From: Spirochaetia bacterium | Lineage (GTDB): Bacteria; Spirochaetota; Spirochaetia; SZUA-6; Bin103 | Length of the DNA: 64,000 nucleotides | Direction of reading: 5' to 3' | Assembly: GCA_965203055.1 (NCBI GenBank) | Contig: OZ241863.1 | Span: 3,104,001 to 3,168,000 of the forward strand | In this document: piece by piece, positions 47,214 through 59,790 of the stretch | How positions within the stretch are numbered: the stretch's first letter is position 1 | Layout: every line of letters starts with the position of its first letter | The notes under the pieces: generated by a model | Told to the model about the DNA's origin: nothing | The model's database searches: none | The model's input: the letters and a program-made list of their open reading frames with translations, nothing else | Made by a program: the position numbers and the translations under genes

Positions 47214-47591
47214 ATGGGAGCGTTCACGGTCGACTGCGAGCTGCAGGAACTTACCGGCAATCGGCCGGCGGTGAGCATCGCCGGGGTAATGGTGGACACC
47301 GGGTCCGAGTACACGTGGCTGCCGGAGCAGGTGCTCACCGCCGCCGGGGTGCGAGTGACCAAGAAGGAGGTGGCGTTCGTGATGGCGAACGGCACGACCA
47401 TCACGCGCGACATTGGCTACGCCTACCTGCGAAGCAGCGGATTCGAGACCGTTGACGAGGTGGTATTTGCGCGCCCCGGCGATCTGCGGCTGCTCGGCGC
47501 GCGCACGCTCGAGGGGTTCGCGGCGCTGGTCGATGCGCGCCGGAAGCGCCTGGTGGCCTCGGGACCGCTGCCGGTGGCATCCGGGAGCTGA
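47214..47591 (+). CDS. Clan AA (retropepsin-like) aspartic protease
   Basis: MVDTGSEYTW, MANG flap and LLGARTLEG motifs. Confidence 0.82.
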   Translation: MGAFTVDCELQELTGNRPAVSIAGVMVDTGSEYTWLPEQVLTAAGVRVTKKEVAFVMANGTTITRDIGYAYLRSSGFETVDEVVFARPGDLRLLGARTLEGFAALVDARRKRLVASGPLPVASGS

Positions 47592-47608
47592 CCTGTCTCG
47601 AGCTGAGC

Positions 47609-48664
47609 ATGCATTCGTTTCGCGACAACCGGCTGCGCGATCATCGGCTGCCGATGAGCACGGCGTGGCTGCTCAACGACATCGCCGAATACAAGGGGAA
47701 GCAGGAGCGGCTTTCCCGGCAGCCGCAGCAGGCCCGCAAGGCGCTCCGCGACTCGGCCGTGGTTCAGAGCGTGGAGTCCTCGAATCGAATCGAAGGGGTG
47801 ACGGTCGGCCGCGACCGGCTGGTGGCGCTGGTACTTGGCCGGTCGGCTGCCCGGGACCGTTCCGAACAGGAGATCCAGGGGTACCGCCGCGCGCTGGGCG
47901 AAATCCATTCCCGCTTCGCGGCGCCGCTCCCGGTTACGCCGGAAACCCTGCAACGGCTGCACGCCCATTGCCAGCCCACCAGCGGCGACGCCGGCCAATT
48001 CAAGCGCGTCGATAACGACATCGTCGAACTCCGGCCGGGACGCGCGCCGGTGGTCCGCTTCCGCTGCGTGCCGGCGCGAGACACCCCGGGCGCCGCGGCG
48101 GAGCTGTGCGCGCGCTACCGCCATGCCCTCGATCAGGACCGCATCCCGCCGCTGATCGCCGGCGCCGCGCTGGTCCTGGACTTTCTCTGCATCCACCCGT
48201 TTCGGGACGGCAACGGTCGCGTGTCGCGGCTGCTCACCCTCCTGACGCTCGACCAGCATGGCTACGAGGTGGGCCGCTACCTCAGCCTCGAACGCCTCAT
48301 CGAGGAGTCGAAGGAGGAGTACTACGCCTGCCTGCACCGTTGTTCGCAACGGTGGCACCAGGGCCGGCACGAACTGACGCCGTGGTTCAACTTCCTGTTC
48401 GCCATCATTCGCCGCGGCTACGTGGAGATGGAGGCGCGCGCCGCGCAGGTGACGGCTCCGCGCGGCGCAAAGGCGGCGCTGGTCCATGCCGCGATTCGCG
48501 CGCAGCCGGGCGAGTTTCGCCTGAGCGATCTGGAACGAGCTTGTCCGGGGGTTGGCCGGGAGTGGATTCGCACCCTGCTGGCCGACCTGAAACGGTCCGG
48601 CGGCGTCACCTGCGAAGGCCGCGGCCCCGGCGCCCGCTGGCGGCTCAAGAATAAGGAGGAATAA
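47609..48664 (+). CDS. Fic-domain protein with C-terminal wHTH
   Basis: HPFRDGNGRVSR active site and SSNRIEG inhibitory-helix motif. Confidence 0.93.
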   Translation: MHSFRDNRLRDHRLPMSTAWLLNDIAEYKGKQERLSRQPQQARKALRDSAVVQSVESSNRIEGVTVGRDRLVALVLGRSAARDRSEQEIQGYRRALGEIHSRFAAPLPVTPETLQRLHAHCQPTSGDAGQFKRVDNDIVELRPGRAPVVRFRCVPARDTPGAAAELCARYRHALDQDRIPPLIAGAALVLDFLCIHPFRDGNGRVSRLLTLLTLDQHGYEVGRYLSLERLIEESKEEYYACLHRCSQRWHQGRHELTPWFNFLFAIIRRGYVEMEARAAQVTAPRGAKAALVHAAIRAQPGEFRLSDLERACPGVGREWIRTLLADLKRSGGVTCEGRGPGARWRLKNKEE

Positions 48665-49577: not shown

Positions 49578-49672
49578 CGCTCAAGTGTGGCATGCCCCGA
49601 TCACGGCGTCAAACTCGCGGCAGGCGTTCCCTGCGATACCATGCCGCCGGCCGGTATACTGGCCGGCACCCG

Positions 49673-52600
49673 ATGCACCGGACGAGCAGCAGCCATTGGA
49701 TCGAGGTCACCGAGTCGGAGTACGCGTGGGAGCGGGAGGCGCTCCACTACCTGAAGACGCGGCTGCCGGACGGCGAGCCGTTTCGCGCGTGGTCCAACTT
49801 CGAGTTCATCGCCCATGACGGCAGCATCAACGAGGTCGATCTGCTGGTGGTGTCGCTGCACCACGTCTACTTGGTGGAGATCAAGAGTTGGCGCGGCGTG
49901 GTCTCCGGCGATCAGAGCACCTGGACCCGCCGCGTGGAGGGCAGGACGTTCCTGGCCGACAGCCCGCTGCTGCTGGCGAACCGCAAGGCGCGCAAGCTGG
50001 CCTCGTTGCTGAAGGAGCAGCCGGCTCTCGCCAAGGTGCGCCGGCCGTTCCTGGAACCGCTCGTGTTTCTGTCGCAGGCGCGGTGCCGGCTGGAGGGGTT
50101 GGCGCGGACCGGGGTGTACCTGTCGGAGAACCACGCCGGCGCCGGGGAGCCGTCGATCGTCGACGTGCTGAGCGGCGCCGCCGGGTTCGATCCCCGGCGC
50201 CCGCCGCCGCGCATCGACCGCCCGTTGGCGCGGGCGATTGCGCGCGCCATGGAGCAGGCCGGCATCCGTCGCTCGCAGCGGCACCGGCGGGTCTGGGACT
50301 ACGAGTTGCGCGAGCTCCTGCTGGAAACCGATGCGTGGCAGGACTGGGAAGCGGAGCACGTCGCGGTGCCGGGATCGACGCGCCGCATCCGCATCTACCC
50401 GCTGGCCCGCGCCTCGTCGGCGGCGGGCCGCCGGGAACGGCGCGCCGCAGCCGAACGCGAGTATCGCCTGCTCGACGGCGTGGGCCACGACGGCATCCTG
50501 CGCGCGGAGCTGCTGACCGACGCCGAGCAGGGGCCGGCCATCATATTCGAGCACCACCCGGCCGCCGAACGGCTGGATCACTTCCTGGACCGGCGCGGCG
50601 CCGAGCTGTCGCCGGAGACGCGGCTCGACTTGGTGCGCCAGTTGGCCCAGACCGTGCAGTACGCCCACGAGCGGCGGCTCTGCCACCGCGCGCTGAGTCC
50701 GCGCCGCGTTCTGGTGACGGACCCGGCCGCGGAGCGCCCGCGGCTCAAGATCTTCGACTGGCAGACGGCAACCCACGGCGCGAGCGGCACGCGCTCGCCG
50801 CTCGCGCCGGCGACCGCCCCGGCGACCGACCCCGTGAGCGACGAGGCGGAGGGCGTCTACCTGGCCCCGGAAGCCAGCCTGGGCAGCTACGACCCGATGA
50901 AGCTCGACCTGTTCTCGCTGGGCGCGGTTGCCTACCGGGTGTTCGCCGGCGCGCCGCCGGCGCCCACCGTGGCCGCCCTGCACGAGCGTCTGACCCGCAG
51001 CCGCGGCCTGAAGCTCTCCGATCAGATCGACGGCGCGCCGGAGGCGCTGCAACTGGTAGTCGAGTACGCCACCGATCCCGACGCCTCCGGGCGGCTCGAT
51101 TCCGCGGCTGATTTCTGCGGGCAGCTCGATGACGCGGAACGGGAGCTGGCCGCGGCCCGGGAGCCGCGTGAGAAGTTCGCGCACCCGCTCGACGCCGGCC
51201 CGGAAGATATGCTGGAGGGTGGATTCCTGGTGGTGCGCCGGCTCGGCCGGGGCGCGACCGCGCTGGCGCTGCAGGTGGAGCACGACGACCGCGGCGGGGT
51301 GCTCAAGGTGGCGCTCGACCCGACCCGCAACGACCGCGTGCGGCGCGAAGGCGAGCTGCTGCGCTCGCTGCGCCATCCCAACATCGTCGAGGCATACCGC
51401 GAGGTGGAGCTTTCCGGCCACGCCGCGGTCTTCATGGCGCTGGCCGGCGCGGAGAACAAAGGCCGCGCCTACACCCTCGCCGACCGCATCCGGGAGGAGG
51501 GCCGGCTGTCGCTCGATCTGCTGCAGCGCTTCGGCGATCAACTGGTGGGCGTCGTGCAGTGGCTGGAGGAGAAGGGCGTGTCGCACCGCGATCTCAAGCC
51601 CGACAACATCGGCGTGTCGGGCGCGCCGCTCAGCCTGGTGGTGTTCGACTTCTCGCTGGCCGACACGCCGGCGGAACAGATCCGCGCCGGCACGCCGCAG
51701 TACCGCGATCCGTTCCTGGCGTTGCGCCTGCCGCGGCGTTGGGACGCCGGCGCCGAACGCTTCAGCGCGGCCATGACGCTGCATGAGATGGCGACCGGTC
51801 AACTGCCCGGCTGGGGCGACGGGCAGAGCGACCCGGCGCTGCTCGACGAGGAAGTCTCGCTGGACGCCGAGTTGTTCGATTCGTCGGTGCGGGAGGCGCT
51901 GACCGCGTTCTTCCGGACCGCGCTGGCGCGCGACTACCGCGCCCGCTTCGACAACGCCGAGGAGATGCGCCGCGCCTGGTTCCGCTGCTTCGAGGCGATT
52001 GACGTGAGTGCGGCCGGCGGCGAAGAAGGCGAGCTGCCGGAGGAGTTCGACGGCGTGACCGAGGCCACCGCGCTGGCCGAGCTGGGCCTCAGCCCGCGCC
52101 TGCTGAACGCCCTGGAGCGGATCGGCGCGCACACGGTGGCCGAGCTGATCGGGCTGCCGCGCATCCGCCTGTACCGCAACCAGGGCATCGGGCAGCGCGT
52201 CGTCAAGCAGATTCGCCGGCTGTCGGAGGGGCTGGCCGAGCACCTGGCCGAACGGGGGCGGACGGTCGCCGCCACCACCGCCGGCGAGGCGCAGGAGTAC
52301 CCGGCCGACCCGGCGGTCTGGAGCATCGACCTGCTGGCGTCGCGGCTGAAGAGGCGCGGCTCCGCGCCCGCCGCCGCGGCCGGCGGCAGTTGGATGAAGC
52401 CGTTGCGCGACTCGGTGGCGGCGCTGGCGGCGGGCCACGGCGGCGTGATGACGGAGGATGAGCTGGTCGGGGCGCTGGCCGCGGCGCGCGGTTCGGCGGC
52501 GTCCGGCGGCGAACGGCTGCGCCGCGCCGGCCTGGTTGCCGAGGCGGCGCTGGAAGCGGAAGGCAAGCGCCGGGACTGCCGCTACCGCGCGCATCCCGGT

Positions 52601-53719
52601 GCCGCCGGCGCGCTGATCCTGGCGACGGCGGCGCTGGACCCCGCGCTGAGCGCGGCGCCGGCGGCGCGCGCCGACTACGTGCGGCGACTCGGCGCGGTGG
52701 CCGACCGGCTTGCCGATGCCGACCCGCTCGCCTCGCCGGCGCGCGTGCGCGAGGAGCTGGCGGCGGTCGAGGCGCCGGCGGGCATGCCGCCGCTCGACCC
52801 GGACCGGTGCGTGCGGCTGGCGGTGCGGGCGGCGGCGCGGGCGGAGCTCTCCTCGCGCGGCGAGCTGTACCCGCGCGGCATGGCCGCGGCGCGCGCCGTC
52901 AAGCTCGGCGCCAGCTCGCTGCTCGGCCCCCGGGAGCTGACGGCGCGGCAACTCCGGGAGCGGCTGGCGAGCCGCTACCCGGCAGCCGAGCGGCTGCCGG
53001 GGCGTCCCCGGCTGGATGAACTCCTGGATGCGGCCGGGCTCAAGCTGGCGTGGGACCGGGAGCGGGCGAGGTACCGCGCGCGGACCCCGCCGCACCGTCG
53101 CACGACCGGCACCACCTCGTCCCCGGCCGGCGCCGGCGACCAGGAAGCGTACGCCGCGGATGCTCTGGACGAACGGCTGCGGCGCACGATCCGCGCGCAA
53201 GGCTTTCTGACGCTGTCGGTCCCGCCGCGCTACTTCATGGACGCCGAGCGCTACCTGGCGGCCGGCTTCGAGCTGGCCGCGTTCAGCCTGGAGGCGGAGC
53301 TGATCCGCCACATGCGGGCGCTGGCGGCCGAACTGGGCGCCGATTGGCAGGTCGTGGTCGCCGCCGACGCGGCGCCCTCGGGCAGCGTCGATCACCGCCG
53401 TCTGAACCAGCTCGTGCAACGGGCGGCGGAGCGGCTGCAGCGCGCGCTCGTCGGCGCGGACGCCCCGCTGCTGCTGTCCCGTTCCGGTCTGCTGGCGCGC
53501 TACCGCCGGCTCGACCTGCTGGCCGCGGTGCAGGACGAATGCCAGCGCGGCGCGGCGCGCGCGGCGCGGATACTCTGCATCGCCGGAGGCGCGCCCGACG
53601 GTCTGCCGGTGATCGACCGCCAGGCGCTGCCGGTGGTGGTAGCCTCGGCCTGGGCGCGCCCCGGCGCCGCCTGGCTTTCCCGCGCCGCCGCCGCAGGTGA
53701 AGGAGGAAATCGCGGATGA
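49673..53719 (+). CDS. pglW: BREX type 2 serine/threonine kinase PglW
   Basis: N-terminal NERD (SEYAWEREAL, AWSNFEF, EVDLL, EIKSW); pseudokinase (HRALSP, IFDWQ); kinase (HRDLKPDN, VFDFSL, GTPQY.DPF); alpha-CTD-like LSPRLLNALER. Confidence 0.93.
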   Translation: MHRTSSSHWIEVTESEYAWEREALHYLKTRLPDGEPFRAWSNFEFIAHDGSINEVDLLVVSLHHVYLVEIKSWRGVVSGDQSTWTRRVEGRTFLADSPLLLANRKARKLASLLKEQPALAKVRRPFLEPLVFLSQARCRLEGLARTGVYLSENHAGAGEPSIVDVLSGAAGFDPRRPPPRIDRPLARAIARAMEQAGIRRSQRHRRVWDYELRELLLETDAWQDWEAEHVAVPGSTRRIRIYPLARASSAAGRRERRAAAEREYRLLDGVGHDGILRAELLTDAEQGPAIIFEHHPAAERLDHFLDRRGAELSPETRLDLVRQLAQTVQYAHERRLCHRALSPRRVLVTDPAAERPRLKIFDWQTATHGASGTRSPLAPATAPATDPVSDEAEGVYLAPEASLGSYDPMKLDLFSLGAVAYRVFAGAPPAPTVAALHERLTRSRGLKLSDQIDGAPEALQLVVEYATDPDASGRLDSAADFCGQLDDAERELAAAREPREKFAHPLDAGPEDMLEGGFLVVRRLGRGATALALQVEHDDRGGVLKVALDPTRNDRVRREGELLRSLRHPNIVEAYREVELSGHAAVFMALAGAENKGRAYTLADRIREEGRLSLDLLQRFGDQLVGVVQWLEEKGVSHRDLKPDNIGVSGAPLSLVVFDFSLADTPAEQIRAGTPQYRDPFLALRLPRRWDAGAERFSAAMTLHEMATGQLPGWGDGQSDPALLDEEVSLDAELFDSSVREALTAFFRTALARDYRARFDNAEEMRRAWFRCFEAIDVSAAGGEEGELPEEFDGVTEATALAELGLSPRLLNALERIGAHTVAELIGLPRIRLYRNQGIGQRVVKQIRRLSEGLAEHLAERGRTVAATTAGEAQEYPADPAVWSIDLLASRLKRRGSAPAAAAGGSWMKPLRDSVAALAAGHGGVMTEDELVGALAAARGSAASGGERLRRAGLVAEAALEAEGKRRDCRYRAHPGAAGALILATAALDPALSAAPAARADYVRRLGAVADRLADADPLASPARVREELAAVEAPAGMPPLDPDRCVRLAVRAAARAELSSRGELYPRGMAAARAVKLGASSLLGPRELTARQLRERLASRYPAAERLPGRPRLDELLDAAGLKLAWDRERARYRARTPPHRRTTGTTSSPAGAGDQEAYAADALDERLRRTIRAQGFLTLSVPPRYFMDAERYLAAGFELAAFSLEAELIRHMRALAAELGADWQVVVAADAAPSGSVDHRRLNQLVQRAAERLQRALVGADAPLLLSRSGLLARYRRLDLLAAVQDECQRGAARAARILCIAGGAPDGLPVIDRQALPVVVASAWARPGAAWLSRAAAAGEGGNRG

Positions 53720-54746
53720 TCCATCTCAGCAGCTTCGCGGCGGTTCACTACCGCGGCCTGGACGGCCTGTCCATCCCCCGGCTGTCCGCCGCCAACCTGG
53801 TGACCGGTGCGAACGGCATCGGCAAGACCGCGCTGCTGGAAGCGATCTGGCTGTTCGTGGGCCGTTACAACCCGGTGCAATTGTGGAATACGAGCATCCA
53901 GCGCTCCGCGTATCCCGTTCTTGATCCGGTCACACGCTTGTCTCATGGGGCAGTGGAACTGCACGGACACGAGAACGGGTCGCGCCACGAACTGAAATGT
54001 ACGTTTGAGTCCGTTCCCTACGCCGGAACGGCCGCGGCGGTTGGCCGCACCGCGGACTCTACGGTCGGCCGTCTGCAAACCCGTATCGACGGGAAGATCG
54101 CGGAAGGGAAGATCGAAGGATTGCATCAAGCACCTGGCGGCACAGTGCGATTCGCAAATCCTAACGCACCGGAGCTGCGGCCGAATTGCATCATAGAGGG
54201 TACCAAATATCAGCAGGATGACTTCGATCATTACCTGAAATACTATTCCGAAATGGTAAGAGAATCCCGAAAGGATGAGTTGACATCCACTCTCAACTCG
54301 ATTCTTCCGGGTATCCGCAGCATCGAGATTCTGATCGACGAGAGCCGGAACACTTACCTGTCAGCGGTTACCGCGGACGGCGAGCAGTTGCCCGTCGATC
54401 ATCTGGGTAGCGGCGTCGTCCGATTGCTGCGGATTCGCTGAGCATGTTCATGTCCAGATACGGAATACTGCTTGCGGATGAGCTGGAAAACGGCATCCAC
54501 TACTCCGCCTTGCAGGATGTCTGGAAGCACATTCGCCGCCGGATGGAGGCGTGGAACGTGCAAATCGTGGCCACCACACATAGCGATGATTGCATCGATG
54601 CGGCGATCGCGGCGTTTGATGATGCGCCCGATGACCTGTCCATACATCAGCTCTTCGTGAACGGAACAACCGGGGGAGTCGACGCAACGACCTTTACCGG
54701 CGTAGCCCTCGAAGGAGCACGCGATCTCAACCTGGAGGTCCGTTGA
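53716..54746 (+). pseudogene. ABC-type ATPase (AAA_21-like) split by an apparent 1-bp deletion near 54436
   Basis: YRGL, GANGIGKT and LGSG in the first frame; LLADELENGIHYS and ATTHS in the second frame. Confidence 0.8.
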
Positions 54747-54858
54747 CAGTGAGCACACGACATCGGACAGATGAGGCCCCTGTACGAGATGTAGGAAATA
54801 AGCAAAACCGAGCTGCAGCTAGCACTCGTGACGAGACGAGGATGATCCTGGACTAGCG

Positions 54859-55299
54859 ATGGCAGTCATATATGACGACCGGGAAATCGATGCGATGATA
54901 AAGGACCCTAAATGTGCCCCGTCCGACTGGCATGACCGGATTCGTCTGAAGCCAAAGTGCGGTCATAGCAGGCAGCAGGTGGAACTCGTCGGCCATAGCG
55001 GGAGTCGATTTCTTGTGATATTCAGGCAGAACTTGATCACTCATTTGGATTTTTCGATCATACTGGCAGTCCGATTGTCAACCTCTGTATTTAGACTCTT
55101 GCGCTACAACGGTAAGAGTCACGAACACTCCAACCATATTGAGCAAACCAAATTCTATGAATTCCATATCCATAGGGCGACAGAACGATACCAGAAGGTA
55201 GGACCAAGGGAAGATGTATATGCCGAACCAACGGACCGCTACAGTGACCGGAGTGGTGCACTGAAGTGTTTGATAGATGACGCCAACATCAAGATATAG
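54859..55299 (+). CDS. Hypothetical His-rich protein (DUF6978-like)
   Basis: DFSIIL, LLRYNGKSHEHSN, FHIHRATERYQ and YAEPTDRY motifs; markedly lower GC than the flanks. Confidence 0.65.
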   Translation: MAVIYDDREIDAMIKDPKCAPSDWHDRIRLKPKCGHSRQQVELVGHSGSRFLVIFRQNLITHLDFSIILAVRLSTSVFRLLRYNGKSHEHSNHIEQTKFYEFHIHRATERYQKVGPREDVYAEPTDRYSDRSGALKCLIDDANIKI

Positions 55300-55334
55300 T
55301 ACGATTCACAGGGCAGTCTCTTCGAGGAGTAATC

Positions 55335-56150
55335 GTGATGACCAAAGATACGATAGAACGCGACTTCCGCGACAAGGTATCAAAACAGATCAGACTACAC
55401 CCGGAAGGATTGAACCGCTTCCGTGTGTTCAACCCGTTTCTGTTCGAGGATGGCGATCATTTGGTTGTCGTATTGAAGAAGGAACGAGGTAAATGGGTGC
55501 TTTCCGATGAGGCGCATACCTTCATGCACCTTACCTATAGTATAGAAGAAGAATTTCTTCTACGTGGCAAAATCCGTAAGTTTGTCTCCTCTGTACTGTC
55601 GACGTTAGATGTCGAGGACCGTGATGGAGAATTGGTATTATACGTCCCTGAAGAGCGCTACGGGGATGCTCTCTATTCCTTCATCCATACGTTATTATTC
55701 ATAATAGGACACTTCGAATATCTGTCACCTGGACCTATTCAATCTACGTTCATGGAGGACTTTCGATCCCTGTTGAGCGAAGCGGTACCGGAAGATAGCA
55801 GGTCTTTCGACTGGACCGATCCGGAACGTGATCCGTTTCGAAAATATACCGTAGATTGTCGGATCAGTGGCATGCGGCGGCCGCTATTTATTCATGCTCT
55901 TGCCAACGACGACCGGACCAGGGACGCCACGATAGCACTGCTCAAGTTCCAGGAGTGGGGAATCGAGTTCCGCGCTCTCGGCATCTTCGAGGATCAGGAA
56001 TCGATCAACCGGAGAGTTCTGGCACGCTACAGCGACATCTGCGAGAAGCAGTTTTCCAGCCTTTTGGAGAATCGAGCAGGAATCGTCCATTATCTGAGCG
56101 AGACCATCGGCGTGCCTGATGGCCGAGCCGGGGCTCGCGATGCCGATTGA
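55335..56150 (+). CDS. DUF1828-like protein
   Basis: NPFLFEDGDHLVV, WVLSDEAHT, STFMEDF and YTVDCRI motifs; GAGGAG RBS. Confidence 0.7.
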   Translation: MMTKDTIERDFRDKVSKQIRLHPEGLNRFRVFNPFLFEDGDHLVVVLKKERGKWVLSDEAHTFMHLTYSIEEEFLLRGKIRKFVSSVLSTLDVEDRDGELVLYVPEERYGDALYSFIHTLLFIIGHFEYLSPGPIQSTFMEDFRSLLSEAVPEDSRSFDWTDPERDPFRKYTVDCRISGMRRPLFIHALANDDRTRDATIALLKFQEWGIEFRALGIFEDQESINRRVLARYSDICEKQFSSLLENRAGIVHYLSETIGVPDGRAGARDAD

Positions 56151-59100
56151 CCGGCGGGAGCTGCTGAGCGATCTGCGGCGCCAGCTCCGGCTGCTGGAGC
56201 GGGACCTGGCCGCGCGCGCCGACGGCGTGCCGGAGATGGCCGCCGCGCTGCAGGCGGAGTATCAGGCGGCGCGCGCCGCCGAGCGCACCGCCGCGACCTT
56301 CCGCGTCTGGCGCGCCGGCGAACTCACCCAGGCCGCAGTCGCGTGGCTGCTCGGCGCCGTGTTCGTGCGCTTCATCGAGGACAACGGGCTGATCGACGAG
56401 CCGCTGATCAGCGGCCCGAACCGCGCCATCGATCGGGCGGAGGAGCGCCAGCTACGCTACTTTCGCTCCCATCCCACCGCGACCGACCGCGACTACCTGC
56501 TTCACGGGTTCGCCGCCGTCGCCCGCCTGCCGGCGCTGGCCATGCTCTACGACCGCGCCCGCAACCCGGTGTGGCGCCTCGGCATCTCCGGCGACGCGGC
56601 GCGCGGCCTGCTGGAGTTCTGGCGCACCGTGAACCCGGACACCGGCGTGCTGCGCCACGACTTCACCGACTCCGAGTGGGACACCCGCTTCCTGGGCGAC
56701 CTGTACCAGGACCTGTCCGACGACGCCAAGAAGCGCTACGCCCTGTTGCAGACGCCGGAGTTCGTCGAGGAGTTCATCCTGGAGCGCACGCTGACGCCGG
56801 CGCTGGAACAGTTCGGGCTGGCCGCAGTGCGCCTGATCGACCCGGCCTGCGGCTCCGGTCACTTCCTGCTCGGCGCGTTCCAGCGGCTGCTGCGCCGGTG
56901 GCGCGCCTGCGAGCCCGAAGCGCCGAAACAGGAGCTGGCGCAGCGCGCGCTGGCCGCCGTGCACGGCGTGGACGTCAACCCGTTCGCGACGGCGATCGCG
57001 CGCTTCCGGCTGGTGGTGGCGGCGCTGCGGGCGAGCGGCATCAGGCGCCTGCGAGAGGCGCCGGCGTTCCCGCTCAACGTGGCCGCCGGCGACAGCCTGC
57101 TCCACGGACGCCGCTTCGGGGAGCTGGACCTGGGCAGCGGCGCGGAACAGCACGCGCTCACCGGCCAGGCCGAGTTCGCGCACGCCTTCCAGTCCGAAGA
57201 CCTCGACGCCCTGAACCGCATCCTCGGCCAGCAATATCACGTGGTGGTAGGGAACCCTCCCTACATCACGGTGAAGGACAAGGCGGTCAACCAGTTGTAC
57301 CGAGCCCGCTACACGACCTGCCGCATGAAGTACGCCATGGGCGTACCGTTCGCCGAGCGACTGTTCGATTTGGCGCTGCACGGCGACTCGGCCGGGTACG
57401 TCGGACAGATCACCTCCAACTCGTTCATGAAGCGCGAGTTCGGCAAGAAGCTGATAGAACGGTTCTTCTCACAGCTCGATCTGACTCACGTCGTCGATAC
57501 GTCGGGGGCCTACATCCCGGGACATGGCACGCCCACCGTGATTCTGGTTGGCCGATCACGCGCTCCGGCGGCCGATACCGTCAGATGCGTGATGGGACTC
57601 CGGGGCGAGCCGACGCCGCCTGCGGTCCCGTCGCGCGGGCGGGTATGGACGGCGATCGTCGAACAGATAGACCGGACCGAAAGCGAATCCGAATGGGTCA
57701 GCGTGGTCGATTACGAACGACGCCACCTGAACGTTCATCCCTGGTCGCTCGGCGGAGGCGCCGCCGTCGATCTGAAGCGGAAGCTGGATGAGTGCGGGGC
57801 CGCGACCCTTGGGCAACGATCGACCGCGATTGGGGTCATGGCGGTAACCGGAGAAGATGAGGTCTTCTCACGTCCAAGTGGTCGAGACTTCGAGCGTCTT
57901 GGCGTAGTGCAGCGTGTATTGCGCCCGTTTGTGGAAGGTAATCGCATTCGTGACTGGGCCATTGCATCGTCGTCCATTTGCGTCTACGACTATGATGCAA
58001 CGGGTTCATTCGTCGCATCCGACACGCCGCCGCCAGTTTTCTGGCCTTATCGAACCAGGTTGCGATCCGGATTAGCGTTTGGTAAGACACGTCAAGAGCG
58101 GGGGATGAACTGGCGTGAATTGTCGTTCGTTATGAAGGACAAGCTCTACACTCTCCTTTCCATTTCCTTAGCCGAAGTTGCTACTCACAATCACTTCGTG
58201 TTCGATCGCGGCGGACGAGTCTTCTCCCAAACCGCGCCCGTGATCAAACTACCGAAGGATGCCAGCGAAACGGATCATCTTGCACTGGTGGGAATCCTCA
58301 ACAGTTCCACGGCGTGCTTCTGGCTGAAGCAGGTAGCGCACAATAAGGGAAGTACCGTCGATGTGAGGGGTGCGCGCCAAACCACCGATTCATTCGAGAA
58401 CTTCTTCCAATTCAATGCTACCAAATTGAAGGGCATTCCGCTTCCTGCCGAGCGTCCTGACAAGCTTGCGGAAGCAATTGATCGCCTTGCTGCTGAGCGG
58501 CAGTCCCATCTGCCGGCGCAACTGACCGACCGCTTTCCCCTGACGCCGGAGGAACTGGATGCTCACTGCGACGCTGCGGCGTCTCTGCAGGCGCGCATGA
58601 TCGCCCTGCAGGAGGAACTCGACTGGGAGTGCTACCGCCTCTACGGCATCATCGACGAAGACTGCCGGTATTCCGCCGGCAACGGCACCGGAGACCGCTC
58701 CGAACCGCCTCCGCTGGCGCTGGGGGAGCGCGCCTTCGAGATCGTCATGGCGCGGCGGATGGCGGCGGGCGAACTGGAGACCCGGTGGTTCGAGCGCCAC
58801 GGCTCCACCCCGATCACCGAGGCGCCGGCCCACTGGCCGGAGGACCACCGCGCCCTGGTTGCCCGCCGCATCGAGCTGATCGGGTCCGACCGCTTCGTCG
58901 GGCTGCTCGAAAGGCCGGAGTACAAGCGCCGCTGGAACACCGAACCGTGGGAGGATCAGGAACGGCGCGCCCTCCGCGCCTGGCTCCTCGACCGGCTGGA
59001 GTCGCCCGCCTACTGGCCGGAGCCCCGGCTCACCACCGTCCGCGAGCTCGCCGCGCGGGCGGCCGCGGATGCCGACTTTCAGCAGGCCGCCGCCCGCTTC

Positions 59101-59790
59101 TCCTATCGCGCCTACGGCTACCTCGACGCGCTGATCGCCGAGCTGGTGGAGGCCGAAAGCGTGCCGGCGCTGCCGGCGCTGCGCTACAAGCCCTCCGGCC
59201 TGGCCAAGCGCGCCGACTGGGAGGCGGTCTGGGCCGCGCAGCGGCGCGAGGACGAAATCGACGCCGAAACGGCCGCCGCGACCCCTCGACTAGCCGGCGA
59301 GACCGAAGATCAGCATGCCGCCCGCCTCAAGACTGAACAGGACCGCCGCAAGCGGGACGAGCTCGGCGACCTGGCGCCGCCGCCCAAGTACCGCGCGGGC
59401 GACTTTCTGAAAGCCGGCTACTGGCGTCTGCGCGGCGCCCTCGACGTGCCCAAGGAGCGCTTCTTCAGCTTGCCGGGCGTGAGCGGCGACGACGATCCCA
59501 CGCTCCTGGTCGGCTGCGCCGGGTGGGACCACTTGACCCTCTGCCAGGCGCTGGCCGCCTACTACAACGAGGCCGACGAGCGCGACGGCTGGACCGCGGC
59601 CCGGGCCGCCCCGCTGCTGGCGGCGATCCGGGAGCACGTGCCGTGGCTCAAGCAGTGGCACAACGACCTCGACGAGGAATACCAGGAGCGTCTGGGCGAC
59701 GTCTACGACAGCTTCGTTCGCTCGCAACTCGCGCGGTTCCGTCTGACCGAACACGATCTGCGGCACTGGGCGCCGCCGGGGCGCTCCTGA
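56140..59790 (+). CDS. pglX: BREX type 2 adenine methyltransferase PglX
   Basis: [14 protein letters not shown]...[49 protein letters not shown] and [11 protein letters not shown] motifs. Confidence 0.95.

Follow-up and report, generated by a model that had tools for sequence, protein, structure and literature searches.

A divergent, probably eroding PDC-M24 gene pair in a spirochaete BREX-2 operon and a candidate clamp-docking tail in its relatives

A low-GC two-gene cassette inside a BREX-2 operon of a Spirochaetia bacterium (assembly GCA_965203055.1, contig OZ241863.1; the analysed window comprises the 64,000 nucleotides from position 3,104,001 to 3,168,000) is, judged by profile matches, a DUF6978 gene (A) followed by a DUF1828 gene (B), a divergent branch of PDC-M24 and not a new system. 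Intact relatives of A end in a conserved motif that likely docks the protein on the replication sliding clamp, and the window's locus is probably an eroding, damaged member of this catalogued family. The function that we tentatively favour, with chances falling just short of even in our judgement, is a toxin-antitoxin-like defence module in which B would keep a clamp-docked A effector inactive until infection sets it free.

The cassette, its host operon and its family

Genes A and B were confirmed as real open reading frames on the + strand, in the gap that separates pglW from pglX in a BREX-2 locus. Upstream in the host operon, the NERD-kinase gene pglW (49592..53719, + strand, start codon uncertain) matched NF033442 with 1328 bits (cut-off 990) and the PADLOC PglW model with E 0; downstream, the methyltransferase gene pglX (56140..59790, + strand) matched NF033451 with 1578 bits (cut-off 400). 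The same BREX-2 locus continues beyond the window with pglZ (NF033446, above cut-off) and a pglY-like gene (NF047891, 1017 bits, below the cut-off of 1700), and no brxHI helicase gene was seen in the 16 kb of the locus examined. Other cargo is present between pglX and pglY, namely a type IIG-like restriction-modification (R-M) gene and a GmrSD/HEC-06-like gene (from 59792), and pglZ is followed by two ORFs without known identity, after which come a further ATPase gene of the AAA type and two that are BrxD-like. An aspartyl-protease-like gene and a gene with a Fic domain (window positions 47214-48664) closely precede the BREX locus.

Gene A (54859..55299, + strand) encodes a DUF6978-family, PDC-M24A-like protein of 146 aa that matched phrog_27326 at E 1e-25, showed profile homology to DUF6978 and is truncated by a TAG codon. 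Behind this stop, translation revealed an orphaned in-frame tail (55300..55332, + strand), which encodes the residues QGSLF (55309-55323) and carries the ribosome-binding site of B; the TAG is the single one within the family-model match. Gene B (55338..56150, + strand) is PDC-M24B-like and drifted, with a DUF1828 N-domain and a restriction-endonuclease-like C-domain according to its PF08861, PDC-M24B and fold matches. Translation from GTG at 55335 would give 271 aa and from ATG at 55338 270 aa, the latter codon having GAGGAG 7 nt ahead. The end of B at 56150 overlaps the pglX gene, which starts with ATG at 56140, by 11 nt. The GC content was 0.478 in A and 0.504 in B versus 0.741 in pglW, 0.674 in pglX and 0.688 in the genome, and the value of 0.495 for the whole cassette was equally low in 7 of 3527 genome tiles of the same size. 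ORFs, GC content and profile scores thus agree with what the earlier note had described, two co-oriented low-GC genes between pglW and pglX with the second overlapping the pglX start. Scanning the cassette for promoters and terminators gave results at chance level, and no RNA holder is listed for the locus.

The A + B pair is cargo of the BREX-2 operon. That it is an insert within a BREX operon, as had been proposed, holds here for BREX-2 and elsewhere for type 3 BREX, but BREX-2 is not the usual host: pglW or pglX was found in none of 80 related loci (best 80 of 503 genome loci), and A and B do not belong to the BREX type 2 core. Two features add to the earlier note: the 146 aa represent a truncated allele, and the slot contains a frameshifted ATPase gene that the note had missed. 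This AAA_15/AAA_21-like, PDC-M38A/AbiLi-like gene (53716..54746, + strand, in pieces 53716-54441 and 54444-54746) had Pfam and PADLOC matches in both pieces. Contigs from three runs contain one extra base near 54433, and other strains have the gene in intact form. In a sister strain it is absent; contigs from two runs connect 53737 with 54806, which gives the order pglW-A-B-pglX. The ATPase is separate cargo outside the A + B pair; no partner gene is located behind it. Further variants of the pglW-pglX gap (window 53694-56139) were observed in runs X1, X3 and X5, where the pglW end is joined directly to B without A or B is shortened before pglX; these joins rest on overlaps of 23-43 letters, and the gap is tentatively regarded as a variable cargo slot.

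As to family membership, the larger protein had been called DUF1828-like, and window B indeed matched PF08861 (E 1.8e-19; 70.3 bits, cut-off 22). It also matched PDC-M24B (E 2.1e-10, 38.5 bits, residues 9-148), for which the B protein of the intact locus L005 reached 71 bits. Window A itself produced no direct match to Pfam, DUF6978 included, or to PADLOC. Among its relatives, four of five homologues tested (54-73% identity) passed the cut-off of DUF6978 (PF22398), 72 of 105 aligned members matched this family at E<=0.5, and the A profile aligned to canonical DUF6978 with a probability of 98.5 and E 1.8e-15. The PDC-M24A model PDLC04538 was matched by 20 of the 105 aligned relatives at E<=0.1 (best 1e-4) and by five of seven A proteins in a separate set (best 1.2e-8), with no match for the A protein of either the window or L005. 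RefSeq labels an E. coli prophage copy as DUF6978 plus DUF1828. Since the DUF1828/PDC-M24B matches are accompanied by DUF6978/PDC-M24A matches among the relatives, the cassette was assigned to a divergent branch of PDC-M24, as judged by E-values and bits without PADLOC's own score and coverage thresholds.

With B matching PDC-M24B, relatives of A matching PDC-M24A and the E. coli copies already annotated, the pair loses its standing as a candidate new system. The question raised by the earlier note, whether the pair matches an already named system, receives half an answer, because PDC-M24 is catalogued yet uncharacterised: the entry is one of 145 computationally predicted candidates in PADLOC-DB v2 (Payne et al. 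2024, bioRxiv 10.1101/2024.01.29.577857). Cassette and PDC-M24 have in common a two-gene layout with DUF6978 ahead of DUF1828, and embedding in BREX and type I R-M operons. The cassette differs as a divergent branch, in that window A has no direct match and window B only 38.5 bits, and in that B of the window's branch has no DUF1829 match whereas four of five canonical B proteins have one. In the published literature searched, neither a clamp motif nor an A-B complex was found for PDC-M24; the supplements of Payne et al., which were outside this search, may say more. The published RexAB-type pair of P. putida is a different pair.

The C-terminal tail of A

Full-length relatives of A are mostly 157-164 aa long versus 146 aa here; intact ones extend at least 11 residues past the site where the window's copy stops, with Q-x-x-L-F or a six-residue form of it at the end. 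Scored as Q-x-x-[LMF]-[FL] or Q-x-x-[LMF]-x-[FL] within the last 16 residues, the motif was present in 112 of the 114 close homologues that remained after 5 of 119 had been set aside as C-terminally incomplete, compared with 6.9 expected by tail shuffling and with 1.4% of body windows. As controls, it was absent from all 119 B proteins and present in 33 of 2168 ORFs from the window's genome. Among broader A representatives the strict motif was found in 56 of 128 (22 of 150 left out), and many others had near variants. In 66 loci the motif codons were degenerate (Gln as CAG in 33 and CAA in 33, Leu by all six codons, Phe by both), so selection acts at the protein level. The possibility that the motif is a mere by-product of B's ribosome-binding site was rejected, as such a site could account for the trailing EE/EG, yet would not give rise to degenerate codons for Q, L and F.

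Distant prophage members keep the motif in 18 of 24 unique tails, e.g. QLSFDL, QLGLF and QLDLDL. All six canonical DUF6978 proteins end in a related x-x-[DEP]-L-[FL] with Gln in only one of them, and a clamp motif lacking Gln is documented in actinobacterial EndoMS (PMC6159515). The bacterial clamp-binding consensus is given as C-terminal QL(S/D)LF (PMC9690074). On the strength of this resemblance the tail of A may bind DnaN or PCNA. In one metagenome contig (L178:3230-5995), the gene upstream of A also has a clamp-type end, EQSLFDQ.

A tail that serves the clamp would be expected to change its spacing in archaeal copies. All four A sequences assigned to archaea (ANME-2 L144 and L145; Thermoplasmatota L152 and P0387) end in L-x-x-F-G, a form that lacks Gln and the second aromatic residue; the assignment relies on contig neighbours or partners in 90% clusters with named members and concerns metagenome contigs, with no named archaeal genomes. 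The PIP box has been described as QXXhXXaa (PMC4929162), and L-x-x-F-G shares its hydrophobic h-x-x-a spacing. Tails with this PIP-type spacing numbered 0 of 72 from bacterial genomes, 0 of 24 from viruses and 8 of 58 from metagenomes; the metagenome scan had been queried with sequences picked for PIP-like tails, and the pattern was defined post hoc. Of these eight, L168 and L194 look bacterial-type, and L143, L146, L155 and L222 are without taxon. The four archaeal sequences probably form one clade; the grouping of P0366 and P0387 had a support of 96 in a quick tree of 121 A proteins, most of which was without resolved branches. As a sign of clamp-type adaptation, the spacing is suggestive only.

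In the window, the TAG at 55297-55299 cuts A ahead of the still-encoded QGSLF, and thus the window's own A is without the motif. The sister strain, covered by three runs from two samples, has a sense codon at this site and keeps the full tail. A contig from a second study shares the TAG with 0 differences over 55200-55420; it is near-identical to the window and may be a source of it, yet 2 of 588 letters differ between the two. Given the same stop in that contig, the TAG is unlikely to be a sequencing error, and amber read-through is unlikely too, with no CUA-anticodon tRNA among 60 tRNA genes and TAG ending 445 of 1442 long ORFs. Window B showed 25 departures at 124 conserved columns versus 11-14 in its five nearest relatives, the family maximum being 10, and window A showed 8 departures at 59 conserved columns versus 3-7 in relatives. 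The stop ahead of the motif, the drift of B at conserved sites and the broken neighbouring ATPase make the copy look eroding, and we consider it fairly probable that the locus, having lost its clamp tail, is decaying or under relaxed constraint. As the tail-less allele persists in two studies, the tail may also be dispensable or the pair neutral.

Protein folds and the predicted A-B complex

The RYNGKSHEH...HIH stretch pointed out in the earlier note is present in A, and its His cluster is conserved across the family: K18, R82, H90, N92, H103 and H105 are kept in nearly all of 18 diverse members. The predicted structure (pLDDT 84.7) is a β-sheet with flanking helices. A Foldseek search of the PDB returned nothing at E<=0.001; a wide fold search with VIA gave no clear match (best Z 5.0, rmsd 4.0, 96 aligned), and in a viral fold library there was likewise no clear match, the best being an uncharacterised phage protein at E 4.5e-3. 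These fold searches show neither a new fold nor absence of kin. Sequence searches of the PDB with the A and B profiles gave nothing below E 0.05. We infer from the conserved residues that the Arg/His/Asn cluster may form a catalytic, metal-dependent hydrolase-type site. An HUH/Y1 endonuclease, to which H-x-H plus a Tyr had been a lead, was dropped because Tyr111 is absent in several distant members.

The same residues recall TumE of TumE-TumA (DUF6516), also a two-gene system, and A might be a TumE-like toxin targeting translation, probably an RNase, with a tail that is incidental or serves some other purpose. The motif R-[YW]-[DN]...H...H-x-H runs in the same order in both families, on a β-sheet with helices (PMC10584680), and aligning the profiles brings their Arg motifs into register. 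The profile-profile probability was, however, only 0.2% and not significant, the TumE profile (PF20126) consisting of 5 rows only, and the 25 families shown for the 105 A members did not include PF20126. TumE moreover is usually encoded downstream of its antitoxin and blocks translation, according to the same source, and such a toxin would leave the selection on a clamp-type tail unexplained. All this makes a TumE-like role very improbable in our view.

The model of B had a pLDDT of 79 and a pTM of 0.48. In this model the N-domain resembles chaperones of type III secretion, Spa15 matching at Z 9.9 (rmsd 2.6, 109 aligned), and the C-domain resembles the restriction endonuclease PspGI (Z 9.8, rmsd 3.2, 121 aligned), with further matches of the latter to Cdn1 (Z 8.9, rmsd 4.1, 112 aligned) and NucS (Z 8.0, rmsd 3.6, 97 aligned). 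The restriction-fold-like end suspected earlier from the segment YTVDCRI, which is present, is therefore borne out at the level of a predicted fold for the C-terminal half. For this half, unrelated receiver domains reached scores as high as Z 7.9 (rmsd 3.2, 100 aligned). Asp173, the first catalytic-type Asp, was invariant in 18 diverse B sequences aligned, and by inspection no (D/E)-x-K follows on the next strand; the PD-(D/E)xK triad thus looks incomplete, with relocated residues being possible. DUF1829 (PF08862) had no HMM match in the C-half of B from the window's branch, and a profile comparison was not significant. In the nearest ESM clusters of B, at 0.94, DUF1829 occurs in 10-14% of members. 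Window B had no match in phage or plasmid collections, and P0366 had none in plasmids.

Co-folding of the intact pair from L005 scored 0.81, and the best control gave 0.00. Of solved complexes, 116 of 157 reach the mark, as do 2 of 215 mismatched pairs; with the alignments used, these counts are approximate. The runs shared at least 80% of contacts with a partner pLDDT of at least 85, and the co-fold supports A-B binding without proving it. The closest predicted contacts (L005 numbers) place B residues 38-41 on His90-Asn94 (His-x-His-x-Asn), His107 and Arg56 of A, and the A tail is not named in the predicted interface. Conservation within this interface exceeded that of the rest on both sides (0.81 vs 0.63 and 0.86 vs 0.77). 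In the model, the chaperone-fold domain of B is predicted to cap the conserved His cluster of A, and the loop with the invariant Asp40 of B may plug the site. The co-fold does not separate B as an inhibitor from an active site shared between A and B. Only 3 matches to A-B fusions were found in 7993 longer candidates, all resembling frameshift joins, which is weak evidence either way.

Under the favoured reading as a defence module, A would dock on the replication sliding clamp via its C-terminal motif while B binds A and plugs the His cluster. Infection would then release A, either through the nuclease-fold domain of B, which looks catalytically incomplete, or through turnover of B, and freed A would damage or block clamp-loaded, newly replicating DNA, leading to abortive infection.

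A different arrangement of the same parts would make A and B a standing clamp-tethered heterodimeric nuclease like EndoMS/NucS, in which A is the adaptor and foreign or aberrant DNA on loaded clamps is cut by the restriction-fold domain of B or by a composite of the A histidines and the acidic loop of B. The fold matches of the C-domain to PspGI, Cdn1 and NucS, the retention of Asp173 in 18 of 18 sequences and the higher conservation of both interface sides all fit such an enzyme. EndoMS/NucS itself depends on the clamp for activity and carries a PIP box in its archaeal and a β-clamp motif in its actinobacterial form (PMC6159515), and with A + B it has in common a C-terminal clamp motif that follows the host clamp type and a restriction-like nuclease fold. 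It is, however, a single-gene core repair enzyme with both on one chain, whereas A + B split the motif and the nuclease fold over a mobile cassette. The apparently incomplete triad and the receiver-domain scores on the same half of B also speak against a standing nuclease, as does HipAD/DS-6 (a HipA-like kinase with a DUF3037-DUF1829 protein), where the DUF1829 protein has been modelled as a DNA-binding antitoxin (PMC13092281). Defence by the two genes of HipAD/DS-6 has been validated, and the second protein terminates in DUF1829, the domain carried by canonical B proteins; the effector there is a kinase and the toxin-binding domain is DUF3037, not DUF1828. Kinship between DUF1829 and the C-domain of window B has only language-model neighbours as its basis. 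Altogether, we consider the heterodimeric nuclease unlikely, although it retains appreciable weight.

Distribution of the pair and its possible role

Relatives of A numbered 262 by word-indexed search and 1291 clusters at 50% identity, and those of B 3142. Genomic context was derived from the best 80 of 503 loci with 14 flanking marker genes. B follows A directly on the same strand in the window, in 78 of these 80 genome loci and in 37 of 38 viral loci, which bears out the idea of a self-contained, mobile pair. Thirty of the 80 are situated inside type I R-M (15), type 3 BREX (8) or SNF2/methylase/DUF499 operons (5) or between two probable methylase copies (2), 18 have a marker on one side only and 32 have none. 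Markers flanked 41 of 64 full-length loci versus 30 of 277 own-genome tiles, an enrichment that is inflated because the markers were derived from these loci.

Some slots have been reused, namely hsdS-hsdR, brxC-methylase and the position behind cI. A profile derived from the viral loci themselves placed a cI-like gene upstream in 18 of the 27 unique ones; annotated examples exist as well. In lambdoid prophages of Pseudomonas and enterobacteria (L104, L111-L132, L134, L135), the pair stands just behind cI, the position that rexAB has in lambda. In two Chloroflexota genomes (L073, L078) it lies inside the hrcA-(grpE)-dnaK-dnaJ heat-shock operon, the names being read from sequence starts. Within the genus, 5 of 11 genomes carry the pair.

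This distribution also bears on the question whether the pair is a selfish addiction module, that is, a SocB-type clamp-blocking toxin with its antitoxin that stabilises the carrier cassette or prophage and gives no phage protection. The 32 of 80 loci (best 80 of 503) without restriction or BREX markers, several of them among housekeeping genes, the patchy occurrence among congeners and the truncated and deleted forms in related strains are what such a module might leave behind. The repeated use of known defence-cargo slots argues against it, as does DefensePredictor, which rates E. coli DUF1828 genes as predicted defensive with log-odds of 5.6-6.3; in its Tables S6-S9 and S11, DUF1828 genes do not occur. 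SocB uses the usual clamp-binding motif (PMC9690074), and RipA of RipAB from Streptococcus pneumoniae is a clamp-targeting toxin (PMC12795458). Like SocAB of Caulobacter and RipAB, which have a small toxin acting at the β clamp, intact members of the family encode a small protein with a clamp-type motif, but scans of Pfam, NCBIfam and PADLOC gave no sequence kinship, A has a conserved His cluster suggestive of catalysis, and B is a partner with a chaperone fold and a nuclease fold. An addiction module without protection appears quite unlikely to us.

The clamp-docked defence module may also be extended to the whole family: PDC-M24, spread from lambdoid prophages to archaea, would then be a His-cluster enzyme riding the β clamp or PCNA, plugged by a secretion-chaperone-fold partner and attacking replicating DNA when unplugged. 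In this breadth the proposal is doubtful, if a serious candidate.

PDC-M24 is widespread and recurrent in defence slots and has been without a proposed mechanism. New here, as far as the papers searched go, are the tail of clamp type and the capping predicted for the His cluster, which together provide a mechanistic handle on the family and make its function directly testable. For such tests, nature offers an allele pair, tail-less in the window and intact in the sister strain, as well as the cI-adjacent prophage copies, which are tractable in the laboratory. If the favoured reading is true, a clamp-docked effector would be added to anti-phage immunity and two DUF families would gain functions.
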